A stretch of DNA of 64,000 nt from Candidatus Magasanikiibacteriota bacterium (GTDB lineage: Bacteria; Patescibacteriota; Patescibacteriia; Magasanikbacterales; GWA2-37-8): assembly GCA_963840935.1 (NCBI GenBank), contig CAWJAS010000001.1:579834-643833 (forward strand). Reading direction: 5' to 3'. Made by a program: the position numbers and the translations under genes. Shown in pieces: positions 15,928-51,226 of this stretch; within the stretch, counting starts at the first letter, position 1, and each line of letters opens with the position of its first letter. Below the pieces are notes generated by a model. The model was given only the letters and a program-made list of their open reading frames with translations, ran no database searches and was not told where the DNA came from.

Positions 15928-17079
15928 TTATTTTATCTCCCCTCCGCCCAAGCAAACGCCCTTAGAATAAAACACGGCGAATTGCCCCGGTGTTACCGCG
16001 CGTTGCGGTTGCGCGAATTTTACGATTAGATTACCACGTCGGCCTTTGGCCTTCTCGCAATGACATTGTTCAAGAGCCTGTCGGTGTCTAAGCCGTACTT
16101 CACATTTTAGCGGAAATTTGGGCTCTCGTCCAGCAATCCAATTGATATTTTTGACTTCCGCTTCGTTTGAATAAAGCATCGGGTCATTTTCAAATCCAAC
16201 TATCAATTGATTTTTTTTTGTATTTTTACCAACAATATATACCGACCGTTGGCTCTCATTTTTTAAACCAATTCTTTCTCCGATCGTATAAAAAGCCAAA
16301 CCGTCGTGCTCACCCAACACTTCACCCTTGGTTGAAGTGATGACGCCTTTTTTTGGTTTTATGGTTTTCATCAGGAATTTTTTCATCGGCACTTCGCCAA
16401 CAAAACAAATCCCCATGCTTTCTTCTTTTTGAGCCGTGGGCAAGCCGAATTTTTTGGCCAGATCCCTCACCTTCGTTTTTGGATACTCACCGATGGGAAA
16501 AATTATCTTTTTTAATTGCGTTTGATTAAGCTGATGCAAAAAATATGTCTGGTCTTTATTATCATCTTTTGCCGACAATAATTTGATTTTTTCTTTTTGT
16601 TCTTTTTTTGGAAATTTGATATTTGAAATTTGGAATTCCCGGTTTAACCGGGCATAGTGCCCGGTCGCCAAATAATCAAAACCTAATTTTTTTGCCTTTT
16701 GAAGCCAAGCGCCGAATTTAACAAATTTATTACACAGTACATCCGGATTCGGAGTTCTCCCGGCTTTGTATTCGCGGTACATATAGTCAAGCACAAATTT
16801 TTTGTACTCTCGCTTAAAGTCGAAACGCAAAAGAGGAATACCGATTTTTGCTGAAACCCGTAAAGCATCTTGATAATCGCCTCTCCAACAGGGCTTCGCT
16901 TCGCTACGCCCTGCAAGCGCCTCATGGGTGAATTTATCTGTAAAATCTTCATAATTAACCATAAAAGCGCCGGTCACATCATAGCCCAAGCGAACCAAAA
17001 GAGCGGCGGATACTGAAGAATCAACCCCGCCGGACATGGTGCATAATACTTTAATTTTTTTTGGTTTCGCGTTTTTCAT
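15928..17079 (-). CDS. mnmA: tRNA-specific 2-thiouridylase MnmA
   Basis: The PP-loop 'CTMSGGVDSSVSA' and the C-terminal 'AVTPGQFAVFY...CLGGG' are present. Two internal segments share DNA identity with the dispersed repeat family. Confidence 0.85.
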   Translation of the reverse strand: MKNAKPKKIKVLCTMSGGVDSSVSAALLVRLGYDVTGAFMVNYEDFTDKFTHEALAGRSEAKPCWRGDYQDALRVSAKIGIPLLRFDFKREYKKFVLDYMYREYKAGRTPNPDVLCNKFVKFGAWLQKAKKLGFDYLATGHYARLNREFQISNIKFPKKEQKEKIKLLSAKDDNKDQTYFLHQLNQTQLKKIIFPIGEYPKTKVRDLAKKFGLPTAQKEESMGICFVGEVPMKKFLMKTIKPKKGVITSTKGEVLGEHDGLAFYTIGERIGLKNESQRSVYIVGKNTKKNQLIVGFENDPMLYSNEAEVKNINWIAGREPKFPLKCEVRLRHRQALEQCHCEKAKGRRGNLIVKFAQPQRAVTPGQFAVFYSKGVCLGGGEIK

Positions 17080-27901: not shown

Positions 27902-27945
27902 ACTCCCTCCTCTTGATAAGAGGAGGGCTGGGGTGGAGTCAGTGG
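27902..27945 (+). repeat. palindromic repeat copy A (cc(c)tcttgataagagg hairpin + ...ggagtc)
   Basis: The sequence is 'actccctcctcttgataagaggagggctggggtggagtcagtgg'. It is a direct copy of repeat B and is inverted relative to repeat C. Confidence 0.8.
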
Positions 27946-28806: not shown

Positions 28807-28838
28807 CCCCGCGCCAAAAACGCGGGGCTTTTCTTTTG
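28807..28838 (+). terminator. rho-independent terminator after HD gene
   Basis: 'ccccgcg-ccaaaaa-cgcgggg' is followed by 'cttttcttttg'. Confidence 0.6.
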
Positions 28839-28869
28839 TCATTGCGAGGATGTTTTGGAGAGTCAACGT

Positions 28870-28910
28870 TTTCCCCCTCTTGATAAGAGGGGGCTGAGGG
28901 GGAGTCTACA
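28870..28910 (+). repeat. palindromic repeat copy B
   Basis: The sequence is 'ttccccctcttgataagagggggctgagggggagtctacac'. It overlaps the stop of the galE-like gene. Confidence 0.8.
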
Positions 28911-46237: not shown

Positions 46238-47191
46238 TTAAATTGCTGAGTTTTGGTACCATTTGTAGGTAGATTCCAATCCTTCTTTCAATTCAAATTT
46301 TGGTTGCCAACCAAGATTATTGACTTTTGAACTGTCCATCAATCTTCCGGGGGTTCCGTCGGGCTTGGTTGTATCCCAAACAATATTTCCTTTGTATCCC
46401 GTAATTTCTTGAATCAAGTTTGCCAAATCTTTGATGTTTATATCTTTTCCAGCGCCCAAATTTACAAATATATCCCCTTTTTCATTTTGCTCTTTGGTCG
46501 GATTCAAATTATTCATGAGAAATATACAACCCTCTGCCATATCATCCACGTGCAAAAATTCACGACGAGGATTGCCTGTGCCCCAAAGTATTACTTCTTT
46601 ATCACCTTTAATTTTCGCTTCATGGAATTTGCGAATCATTGCCGGAATTACATGTGATTTTTCCAAATCAAAGTTATCATTAGGGCCATATAAATTAGCA
46701 GGCATTACGGAAATAAAATTTGTGCCATATTGACGATTGTAACTCTGACACATTTTTATGCCGGCGATTTTTGCCAAGGCGTACGGCTCATTGGTTGGCT
46801 CCAAAGTTCCGGTTAATAAATATTCTTCTTTGACGGGCTCTGGGGCAAATTTTGGATAAATGCAAACCGAACCCAAAAATAAAAGTTTTTTTACTCCGTT
46901 TACGTATGACTGGTGAATAATATTATTTTGAATTTGCAAATTTTCGTATATAAATTGTGCCGGGTATGTATTGTTTGCTTAAATCCCGCCGACTTTGGCG
47001 GCGGCCAAAATTACATACTCCGGTTTTTCTTGCGCGAAAAATTCGGCAGTTGCCTGTTGGTTTGTTAAATCAAGTTCTTCGATAGTGCGATAAACCAGAT
47101 TGTTGTAACCTTGGGCTTGCAAATTGCGGACCAAGGATGAACCGACAAGGCCGGTGTGGCCGGCGATGTAAATTTTGGATGTTTTTTGCAT
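46238..47191 (-). pseudogene. fcl: GDP-L-fucose synthase (fcl) interrupted by an in-frame TAA at 46979-46981
   Basis: The N-terminal part '[19 protein letters not shown]...AAKVGGI*' is followed in the same frame by '[22 protein letters not shown]...[13 protein letters not shown]'. The alignment to E. coli Fcl is collinear across the stop. Confidence 0.6.
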
Positions 47192-47203
47192 AATTTTTAA
47201 ATA

Positions 47204-47437
47204 AAATTCTTCGCTTCGCTCAGAATGACAGGTAACTGGATTCCCGCCTACGCGGGAATGACAGTGTGCGAATAAGATTGCTTCGGCGTCCCTTTGGGAC
47301 TTCTCGCAATGACAGGGCTTCGCTTCGCTACGCCCTGTAAACGCCAGGTTCACTTATTAACTACGCCCTGTAAACGCCAGATTCGCTTCGCTCAGAATGA
47401 CAACGAACTGGATTCCCGATCAAGTCGGGAATGACAA
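47204..47437. repeat. cluster of short GC-rich hairpin repeats (units ending ...cgc(t/a)(cag)aatgaca, and cagggcttcgcttcgctacgccctg) filling gmd-fcl spacer
   Basis: There are at least five sub-elements, and the same units recur at 16043, 16889, 28838, 50921 and 51226. Confidence 0.8.
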
Positions 47438-48448
47438 TTAGGATTCGCACATTATGGCTACGAGCTCTTTGAATTTAACTTTCGGTTCCCAACCAAGAAT
47501 ATTTTTTGCCTTGGTGGCATCGCCCAAAAGCAAATCCACTTCAGCCGGTCGAAAATATCGCTCATCAATTTCAATAATTGTTTTACCGGTATTTTTATCA
47601 ATTCCTTTTTCATCTTTTCCACTGCCTTGCCAAACAATATCAAAACCAAAAAAATTTCCCGCAGTTTCCGCGAATTCCCGCACAGTATGCGTTTCACCTG
47701 TGGCTATCACATAATCATCCGGTTTATCTTGCTGGAGCATCAGCCACATCGCTTCTACATAATCCTTGGCATATCCCCAATCGCGTTTGGCATCAAGATT
47801 ACCCAGATAAAGTTTTTCTTGTTTTCCTTCTTTGATATTTTTGAGCGCGTCGGTAATTTTTTTGGTGACAAAAGTTCCACCCCTGCGTGGCGATTCATGA
47901 TTAAACAAAATTCCATTGCAGGCAAACAAACCGTATGACTCGCGATAATTAACGGTTAAATAATGCGAATAAACCTTGGCGCACCCGTATGGACTGCGAG
48001 GATAAAACGGGGTGGTTTCTTTTTGCGGAGTTTCTTGAACTTTGCCAAACATTTCTGATGAGCCGGCTTGATAAAATTTTGTTTTTATACCCGATTCTTT
48101 GATCGCGTCAAGCAAGCGCAAAGTGCCGAGCCCAACGGTGTTACCGGTGTAAACCGGCATGTCAAAACTGACCTTCACATGACTTTGCGCGCCCAGATTA
48201 TATATTTCATCCGGCTTAATTTGCTCCAATAGTCGAGAAATATTACTGCCGTCAGTCAAGTCGCCATAATGCAAAAACAATTTTACTCCATTTACATGCG
48301 GGTCCTCATAAAGATGGTCTATACGCGAAGTATTAAAAGTACTGCTCCGGCGAATGAGGCCGTGGACTTCATAACCTTTTTCCAAAAGCAGTTCCGCCAA
48401 ATATGAACCGTCTTGACCGGTAATGCCGGTGATTAAAGCTTTTTTCAT
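47438..48448 (-). CDS. gmd: GDP-mannose 4,6-dehydratase
   Basis: '[19 protein letters not shown]' is present, and the C-terminal '...VAIMCES' resembles E. coli Gmd '...VAIALES'. Confidence 0.9.
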
Positions 48449-50657: not shown

Positions 50658-50699
50658 GACTCCCCCTTAATCCCCCTCTTAATAAGAGGGGGGAAACTG
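50658..50699 (-). repeat. palindromic repeat copy C (inverted relative to A/B)
   Basis: The sequence is 'gactcccccttaatccccctcttaataagaggggggaaactg'. Confidence 0.8.
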
Positions 50700-50707
50700 C
50701 AAGAAAT

Positions 50708-51226
50708 ATGAAATATATTGCCAAAAATGAAGCGGAAACCGTTAAAATAGGCGAAAAAATCTCTGCCAAGCTTAAAGGCGGAGATATTTTGTGTTTGTAC
50801 GGGGATTTGGGCGCCGGAAAGACTACTTTGGTAAAAGGGTTGGCGAAAGGGTTTGGGATAACAAAAGAGGTGGTTAGTCCGTCGTTTGCGATTATGAATG
50901 TTTATGAAATTGGTGATTGCCGAAGGGATTCTTCGACTTCGCTCAGAATGACAGGGCTTCGCTTCGCTACGCCCTGTAAACGCCAAGCTAACTTAACTAT
51001 GCCCTGTAAACGAAAAAGCACAGTAAAACAGTTGGCGCATTTTGATTTGTATCGTTTAAAAGATGTTGAAGAATTTTTGGATACGGGTGGAGCGGATTAC
51101 TTGGGCGCGCCGGACACGATTTGTGTTATTGAATGGCCGGAAAAAATTGAGGAGCTTTTGAAAAATAAAAAAACGATTGACATAGCAATCGAGCATTTAA
51201 AAAATGGGAGAGAAATTAAATTTTAG
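50708..51226 (+). CDS. tsaE: tRNA t6A biosynthesis ATPase TsaE with ~30-aa in-frame repeat-derived insertion
   Basis: The P-loop 'GDLGAGKTT', 'SPSFAIMNVYE' and 'HFDLYRL' are present. A repeat-encoded segment lies between the last two motifs. Confidence 0.75.
   Translation: MKYIAKNEAETVKIGEKISAKLKGGDILCLYGDLGAGKTTLVKGLAKGFGITKEVVSPSFAIMNVYEIGDCRRDSSTSLRMTGLRFATPCKRQANLTMPCKRKSTVKQLAHFDLYRLKDVEEFLDTGGADYLGAPDTICVIEWPEKIEELLKNKKTIDIAIEHLKNGREIKF
50921..51012. repeat. dispersed hairpin repeat copy inside tsaE ORF
   Basis: 'cttcgacttcgctcagaatgacagggcttcgcttcgctacgccctgtaaacgcca...' is near-identical to 47381-47345. Confidence 0.8.

Follow-up and report, generated by a model that had tools for sequence, protein, structure and literature searches.

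A probable mosaic of Ssn-related hairpin repeats between gmd and fcl in a Candidatus Magasanikiibacteriota genome

The subject of this study is the 246-base spacer (47192-47437) that separates the minus-strand genes gmd (GDP-mannose 4,6-dehydratase) and fcl (GDP-L-fucose synthase) in a stretch of 64,000 nucleotides, here called the window, from a Candidatus Magasanikiibacteriota bacterium (contig CAWJAS010000001.1, positions 579,834 to 643,833). In our reading, to which we give a probability of roughly 70%, the spacer is a mosaic of Ssn-related motifs, i.e. of tagged repetitive extragenic palindromic (REP) hairpins that would be acted on as single-stranded DNA by a GIY-YIG nuclease of the Ssn family. 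The repeat family as such has already been described; what sets this member apart is an unreported host group, the unusual one-way arrangement of the cluster and the presence of in-frame copies in essential genes.

Architecture of the spacer and folding of its units

The spacer is set in a compact, AT-rich window (GC 0.386), in which intergenic gaps are tiny. Its own GC content is 0.484; for the ten other large intergenic gaps the values are 0.24-0.39, with one exception. The first-pass annotation, which had noticed here a GC-rich cluster of at least five repeat units, was right as to composition. It was also right as to content. The spacer holds five units tagged with TGTC, together with one and a half copies of a further hairpin, D, all in a single orientation. 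On the plus strand the order is 14 AT-rich bases, A1, B1, C1, D1, a 14-nt filler, half a D, A2 and B2. The cluster is bounded by the fcl start codon (CAT on the plus strand, 47189-47191) and by the gmd stop codon (TTA, 47438-47440), which begins one base beyond B2. Every tagged unit of the spacer ends with AATGACA on the plus strand, as the '...atgaca' ending recorded at first inspection suggested, and thus starts with TGTCATT on the minus strand. The sequence is far more repetitive than chance would allow, as reflected in seven occurrences of GAATGACA (2.05 expected), in five occurrences of CTCGCAATGACA within the 64 kb and in direct repeats (37 nt at 92% identity and 28 nt at 93%). A simple scan for TGTCATT with a 4-5 bp stem, which found 12 matches against 9.9 expected, is too loose in AT-rich DNA and was not used as evidence.

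Read on the minus strand, the tagged units follow a common plan: an unpaired GTC tag, a palindrome with the feet ATT...AAT, and then C. They differ in the interior between these feet, which is a continuous 8-bp stem in B, a GCGAAGC core with GA/GA flanks in A, and an internal loop followed by a second hairpin in C. B1 (47236-47263, minus strand; TGTCATTCCCGCGTAGGCGGGAATCCAG) consists of the TGTC tag, the arm ATTCCCGC, the 4-nt loop GTAG, the arm GCGGGAAT and a CCA tail, and B2 (47408-47436, minus strand; TGTCATTCCCGACTTGATCGGGAATCCAG) of TGTC, ATTCCCGA, the 5-nt loop CTTGA, TCGGGAAT and CCA; the two 8-bp stems differ by one compensated pair. A1 (47205-47230, minus strand; TGTC-ATTCT-GA-GCGAAGC-GA-AGAAT-T) has a 5-bp outer stem around the GCGAAGC core and is peculiar in having T, not C, directly after the palindrome, while A2 (47380-47402, minus strand) is a shortened version with a 4-bp outer stem. 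In C1 (47276-47314, minus strand; TGTC-ATTGC-GAGAA-GTCCC-AAA-GGGAC-GCCGAA-GCAAT-C) the outer stem is followed by a purine-rich internal loop and an inner hairpin. D1 (47313-47346, minus strand; CAGGGC-TTCGCTTCGCTAC-GCCCTG-TAAACGCCA on the plus strand) has a stem that overlaps the TGTC tag of C1, and the half D (47361-47379, minus strand; CTACGCCCTGTAAACGCCA) belongs to a composite block of about 75 nt that is also found inside tsaE (see below). Type D is lineage-specific, being found only in the window and in one related locus (L204).

The first-pass statement that each unit can form a hairpin holds only in part. When folded as DNA and compared with shuffled sequences, the B units are clearly better hairpins on either strand (z = -4.6/-5.5 and -3.5/-3.6; z = -5.45 for B1), whereas the minus-strand fold of D is of moderate strength (z = -2.2), that of C is weak to moderate, and A behaves like the shuffles. 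The minus-strand A and D units contain GCGAAGC with purine flanks. The sequence d(GCGAAGC) reportedly forms an unusually stable DNA mini-hairpin, as described by Hirao and colleagues in the early 1990s, and tandem G.A mismatches are tolerated. If this stability applies here, the model may underestimate how well the tagged strand folds as DNA. Within the window, 13 of the 14 copies of GCGAAGC are on the minus strand.

The possibility that the units are fragments of rRNA or tRNA, raised together with the first description of the cluster, was rejected, as Rfam and ARAGORN detected no such fragment in the spacer. More generally, Rfam 15, applied at the gathering threshold to the window and up to an E-value of 10 to the spacer, assigned the spacer to no family (best score 24 bits, against a threshold of 66). 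A CRISPR-like array was considered and rejected, since the units are heterogeneous, abut each other and lack unique spacers. We also observed a perfect 9-nt inverted match between spacer positions 47265-47273 (TGTGCGAAT) and the terminal codons of gmd (47443-47451, ATTCGCACA), which could be due to chance or be a trace of the origin of the insertion.

Relationship to CGTC-tagged repeats and to the Ssn system

The CGTC-tagged REPs were defined by Di Nocera et al. (2013; PMC3733652) by a CGTC or TGTC tag (CCTC being allowed), a stem of 8-9 bp that begins with A-T and then T-A, a loop of 4-5 nt and a tail of 3 nt, mostly CCA. They include the dRS3 repeats of Neisseria and RPE-4 and RPE-6 of Rickettsia, and intragenic copies are known (PMC3733652). 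All nine tagged units of the window carry TGTC, always on the minus strand. B1 and B2 have a stem and a loop of the defined size, and like the CGTC-1 and CGTC-2 families they combine a TGTC tag with an 8-bp stem starting with AT, a loop of 4 or 5 nt and a CCA tail; the likeness extends to in-frame intragenic copies and to the absence of a nearby transposase gene. In contrast, the A and C units, with an outer stem of 4-5 bp followed by an internal loop, exceed the stem and loop limits, so that the cluster mixes in longer, bulged units. Their tails are TTT, CTG or CCC for A and CTT, CTC or CCC for C.

The longer form of dRS3, called NTS (CGTCATTCCCGCGMAVGCGGGAATCYRG), was recently studied by Chenal et al. 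(2025; PMC11893778). It is bound and cut by SsnA, a single-domain GIY-YIG nuclease of 94 amino acids whose gene is flanked by NTS units, solely as single-stranded DNA and solely on the tagged strand; mutagenesis showed that cutting depends on the three bases preceding the palindrome on its 5' side, and binding on the C that directly follows on its 3' side (PMC11893778). The same authors generalized NTS to the 'Ssn-related motif' (SRM), with the pattern HGTCWYN(0-2)YYVSBRHN(0-5)WNVSBRGN(0-2)RNCYNB (PMC11893778). The only match to this pattern in the window is B1 (47236-47263), against 0.02 expected per shuffled window, and by eye B1 agrees with the Neisseria NTS consensus at 26 of 28 positions. 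The orthologous unit in a syntenic relative (L122; TGTCATTCCCGCGAAGGCGGGAATCCAG) matches the SRM pattern as well, with 27 of 28 positions identical to the consensus. Both GTC 5' of the palindrome and C 3' of it are present in eight of the nine tagged units, A1 being the exception. Because GTC...C are precisely the positions that units A, B and C have in common, their conservation matches the biochemistry of SsnA.

A blastn search of the spacer against annotated records gave, through unit B, matches in Neisseria gonorrhoeae, Photobacterium (18 places), Cupriavidus and Halioglobus. On the strength of these sequence comparisons, the B units are shown to be members of the CGTC/TGTC-tagged REP superfamily, now called Ssn-related motifs (PMC3733652, PMC11893778), and the resemblance to REP or miniature inverted-repeat transposable elements remarked on at first inspection thus finds a precise counterpart. 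Unit B also matches eight places in the 274-kb genome of the Microcystis phage MaAM05 (MW495066.1). Searching the literature by the raw sequences of the units returned primer matches only, and a sequence search of the PDB revealed no Ssn structure, the sole match being a remote UPF0213 protein.

The window shares with the Neisseria NTS/SRM system not only the fit of B1 to the SRM pattern and the GTC and C on either side of the palindrome, but also the oriented clustering of units around genes. It differs in the host, which is Parcubacteria-like, with a genome of about 0.77 Mb, and belongs to a group not mentioned in the text of PMC11893778, in the A, C and D units, which lie outside the published pattern, and in the lack of an ssn gene in the window. 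The Rickettsia palindromic elements RPE-4 and RPE-6 offer a parallel at the level of description: they too are short palindromes read in frame in housekeeping genes of a reduced, host-dependent genome, where they add peptide loops. The hosts, however, are unrelated, and the insertions seen here are composites of several unit types.

Type C extends the comparison to other phyla. We scanned one genome per species (596 Gb) with the pattern GATTGCTTCG-N(8-30)-CTCGCAATGACA, which has 22 fixed bases and for which an estimated 1-2 matches would be expected by chance. Units with the type C ends (TGTCATTGCGAG...CGAAGCAATC) were found in at least 120 stretches and in most bacterial phyla; C1 has its ends in common with at least 153 units of other phyla. 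The hosts among the matches listed include Chloroflexota, Patescibacteria, all the proteobacterial classes, Bacteroidota isolates, Nostoc, Helicobacter, Planctomycetota, Omnitrophota and a Rickettsiales endosymbiont, among others. Among the 128 distinct middles in the matches listed, 63 contain a perfect stem of at least 4 bp (16.6 expected), and many of those without such a stem are of the GCGAAGC type. The highest density was met in Chloroflexus sp. SKYG63, where long type C arrays on contig 48 (L058, L079) are part of a composite repeat of about 90-150 nt; its 18-kb contig carries 12 units of the exact pattern, far more than elsewhere.

At one of these loci (L048), a GIY-YIG gene of 95 codons is directly bordered by C units arranged as an inverted pair. 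Using its protein as a query, 80 metagenomic loci were fetched, and counts were made on the 73 in which 150 nt or more are available on either side. GTCATTGCGA was present upstream of the gene in 55 of them, TCGCAATGAC downstream in 61, and both in 48 (66-84%); as a rule, no more than a few tens of bases separate the C units from the gene. The flanked proteins, of about 95 amino acids, contain PF01541 only. In N. gonorrhoeae the L048-type protein has just one match (44% identity, E 7e-17), at a locus that has canonical NTS units on both sides, one of them 2 nt past the stop codon. In view of this homology between the flanked genes and an NTS-flanked gonococcal locus, type C is the motif of another branch of the Ssn nuclease family, framing its genes as an inverted pair. 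In L048-type loci the tags are directed outwards from the gene, in the single gonococcal locus that was read towards it. The association is weak in the reverse direction, a GIY-YIG gene being present at only 2 of the 120 loci picked by the type C pattern among the matches listed.

A few further observations concern individual GIY-YIG genes. In N. gonorrhoeae NZ_CP119142.1 (L223, 245-300) the ssnA-like gene seems to require a shift of frame close to its start: the ATG frame stops after 10 codons, and the GIY-YIG domain is in another frame; this gene may be a pseudogene or have a different start. A Doudnabacteria GIY-YIG gene (L008, 3972-4930, minus strand), of the type typical of the candidate phyla radiation (CPR), contains an in-frame TAG, and close to it a 27-nt sequence is repeated in tandem about five times between a C unit and a C-unit fragment. 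Another CPR-type gene, of 85 codons (L207, 1440-1830), is directly upstream of a tRNA gene whose first 11 or so bases (GGGCCGGTAGC) are duplicated across it, as if it had been inserted at the tRNA 5' end. Genes of this L008 type lack flanking units, the one in L207 adjoining a tRNA gene and the one in L213 having no room for units, and were ruled out as the cognate enzyme.

Copies elsewhere in the window and turnover in relatives

The first-pass annotation placed further copies at 28838, 50921 and 51226. The second of these turned out to be a composite inside tsaE (50636/50708-51226, plus strand), made of A3 (50927-50953), D2 (50952-50985) and half a D (50997-51012), all on the minus strand. 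These units are read in frame and form a 36-residue insertion in a loop of TsaE, between two residues that are adjacent in solved TsaE structures. The block of about 75 nt shared with the spacer (a unit end, D, filler and half D) has about 90% identity. The third consists of two C units, C2 (51229-51267) and C3 (51280-51318), on the minus strand between the convergent genes tsaE and queH. The queH frame continues through both of them, which adds 34 residues beyond the Pfam domain and makes it overlap the tsaE stop codon by 11 nt; QueH has 210 residues in the window and 176-190 in relatives. The copy at 28838, instead, is a mere fragment: only the 12 nt of the 5' end of a C unit (TGTCATTGCGAG, 28837-28848, plus strand) are present, in the opposite orientation.

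That list was also incomplete, two copies inside mnmA (15928-17079) having been missed. A degenerate C-like unit (16029-16065, minus strand) is translated as CHCEKAKGRRGNL and hardly lengthens the protein, while D3 (16889-16921, minus strand) is translated as AGRSEAKPC in a region where MnmA is about 11 residues longer than the solved MnmA structures. Translations of the spacer repeats had been likened at first to spurious open reading frames (ORFs); such translations are not spurious in every case, since in tsaE and mnmA the units are read in frame within intact genes. Units share one orientation at four independent loci of the window; in tsaE, a plus-strand gene, this puts the tag on the antisense strand.

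The window also contains three copies of another hairpin repeat, CCCCTCTTNATAAGAGGGG, which is unrelated to the tagged units and has a GACTCCCCCT-like arm close by (27907-27925, 28874-28892 and 50673-50691; none expected). One copy is located just upstream of the real start of tsaE, and another adjoins the fragment at 28837. The segment 28001-29000 is a local GC peak (0.529) that covers an HD-domain gene and the repeat-rich spacer downstream of it.

Comparison with syntenic loci from independent metagenomes showed that the units have been gained, lost or exchanged at orthologous sites, in line with the suggestion that presence/absence differences be looked for among related genomes; both the gmd-fcl and the tsaE sites are empty or differently filled in relatives. 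In L121, a single nucleotide separates the gmd stop codon from the fcl start. The spacer is therefore an insertion into a tight junction, as its first description as a separator of normally coupled genes implied. In L122 the gap is 125 nt long and contains three units (C, B, A) in the same orientation, compared to the seven pieces of the window. In addition, the presence of the same families at the same loci in independent assemblies shows that the cluster is not due to assembly chimerism.

The situation is similar for tsaE. The closest homologues of the protein (P0002, P0004) have no unit in the loop; others carry A (P0005), B (P0006), B with a longer loop (P0008) or a nested B together with an A (P0003). 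In L204, tsaE is empty and a C+D block is present just after the gene. The A unit orthologous to that of the window has ATTCC...GGAAT in L122 instead of ATTCT...AGAAT, i.e. a compensated pair in a coding region. Of 120 TsaE homologues, about 90 have a loop of 14-20 residues and about 26 one of at least 25, and several of the long loops carry unit-derived peptides. The loop, located between SPTF and HxDxYR (P0001-P0120), is a hot spot of repeat-derived insertion across Parcubacteria; other peptides that recur in it, KLFNRV and LPAGR, suggest further hairpin families read in frame.

As for the two genes that border the spacer, both were identified by Pfam. The upstream member of the pair, gmd (47438-48448, minus strand), is intact. 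The downstream member, fcl (46238-47191, minus strand), contains an in-frame TAA (46979-46981) at a codon that reads CAA (Gln) in both syntenic relatives. The gene is thus either a pseudogene or a strain variant, or else the assembly is in error here.

Proposed mechanism, alternatives and implications

In the mechanism we propose, the tagged strand would become single-stranded at the replication fork, in repair or on incoming transforming DNA, thereby allowing the unit to fold. The folded unit would then be bound by a small, single-domain Ssn-family GIY-YIG nuclease, which would nick the DNA a few bases 5' of the tag. We infer that the gene for this enzyme is located elsewhere in the genome, and that the enzyme recognizes the units as single-stranded hairpins and takes part in their copying. 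The copying might proceed by Ssn-dependent transposition, with an IS-like 'unit-ssn-unit' element and its orphan ends being moved, or by recombination and gene conversion between copies. Locally, the side effect was that the insertion broke the 1-nt junction between gmd and fcl and put a strongly folded stretch of 246 nt into their transcript, which probably uncouples the translation of fcl from that of gmd; elsewhere, the unit family has lengthened TsaE and MnmA by peptide loops. Judging from the GC skew, which is negative over 1-50 kb, the template of the lagging strand is probably the tagged minus strand. This is a hint, drawn from few independent loci, of a behaviour like that of other single-strand elements.

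Several observations weigh against this interpretation. Neither the window nor the 49 kb covered in syntenic relatives (L121-L123, L204, L205) holds a GIY-YIG frame or remnant, and the CPR-type GIY-YIG genes examined (L008 type) are not flanked by units. The SRM pattern fits only one of the nine tagged units, leaving A, B2, C and D unmatched, and under nearest-neighbour rules A cannot be told from shuffled sequence, and D folds no more than moderately. CGTC-tagged REPs are mostly head-to-head dimers and rarely form clusters, which is a tendency and not a criterion (PMC3733652), whereas every unit of the window is arranged head-to-tail in a cluster. Finally, the role demonstrated for Ssn in Neisseria is the restriction of transforming single-stranded DNA and not the copying of units (PMC11893778).

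The lack of an ssn gene in the window and in the 49 kb of relatives would also be accounted for if the units were inert relics, i.e. an old insertion shuffled by slippage, unequal recombination and gene conversion, with no dedicated enzyme in the lineage. It is known that 19% of the SRM-rich genomes have no Ssn homologue (PMC11893778), and the block of about 75 nt shared by the spacer and tsaE, as well as the C+D block of L204, are what copy-and-paste by recombination would be expected to produce. On the other hand, close relatives carry different unit types in the same TsaE loop, the compensated stem change points to selection on pairing, and GTC...C has been kept in eight of the nine units; on balance, relics of this kind appear quite improbable.

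The units might instead act mainly as RNA within the gmd-fcl transcript, namely as REP-like stabilizers, processing sites or attenuators that set the gmd:fcl expression ratio, in which case a DNA enzyme would be irrelevant here. The minus-strand RNA of the spacer is indeed strongly folded (-88.6 kcal/mol, against -72.0 for the shuffles; z = -3.75), and units lying between co-directional genes or at 3' ends occupy the sites where most REPs are found and for which RNA roles have been argued (PMC3733652). Yet 47192-47437 has no terminator-like site (a GC-rich hairpin followed by a T run) on either strand and no promoter-like site, the orientation is independent of transcription, as demonstrated by the antisense position of the tagged strand in tsaE, and SsnA does not bind RNA (PMC11893778). 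As an RNA role would also leave unexplained why 22 fixed nucleotides are common to different phyla, we consider it improbable.

Even less can be said for movement by RAYT, an IS200/IS605-type Y1 transposase, as in classical REPs and REPINs. The similar size of the units, their structure of a palindrome with an unpaired tag and their clustering are reminiscent of the E. coli BIMEs and Pseudomonas REPINs, which are likewise intergenic mosaics of short imperfect palindromes thought to form single-stranded hairpins, and inverted type C doublets occur in other genomes (L012, L030, L069). But the tag of BIMEs and REPINs is GTAG and not TGTC, their enzyme is an HUH Y1 transposase, and the alternating orientation typical of them is absent in the window, which has no inverted pairs. 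Moreover, the gene flanked by type C units encodes a GIY-YIG protein and not a Y1 transposase, no Y1 transposase was found among the part of the window proteins run through Pfam, and CGTC repeats have no association with transposases and no link to RAYT (PMC3733652), all of which makes this explanation very unlikely. We regard as equally far-fetched the idea that a site-specific recombinase, for instance one of the IS110/Piv type by which Nf prophages enter Neisseria dRS3, uses the units as landing pads. Recombinases are known to target dRS3 (PMC11893778), which forms the core of unit B; in the window, however, no unit holds an insertion, and no recombinase, prophage or insertion sequence was found in the ORF map or among the window proteins scanned with Pfam, which represent a minority of the ORFs.

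Our preferred reading, that of Ssn-related motifs recognized as single-stranded hairpins, extends the Ssn/NTS-type hairpin repeat system to bacteria of the CPR. The near-identity of a Parcubacteria unit to the Neisseria NTS and the conservation of 22 nt in the type C ends of different phyla point to a strong constraint imposed by the nuclease or to a horizontal spread of the nuclease-motif pair. For the organism, the repeats are a means by which a very compact genome is remodelled, in that a coupled gene pair has been split and loops of TsaE and MnmA have been lengthened. For annotation, recognizing the units helps to avoid spurious ORF calls and explains odd insertions and C-terminal extensions in real proteins. 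A bolder and rather doubtful extension of this reading is that the 'hairpin-ssn-hairpin' unit, with TGTCATTGCGAG at its ends, represents a pan-bacterial insertion sequence, that the GIY-YIG single-strand nuclease of about 95 amino acids serves as its transposase, and that the units of the window are orphan ends still inserting in the Parcubacteria lineage. If this were true, active insertion would include in-frame events in essential tRNA-modification genes, and the units would continually supply ultra-small genomes with new protein loops and rearranged operons.

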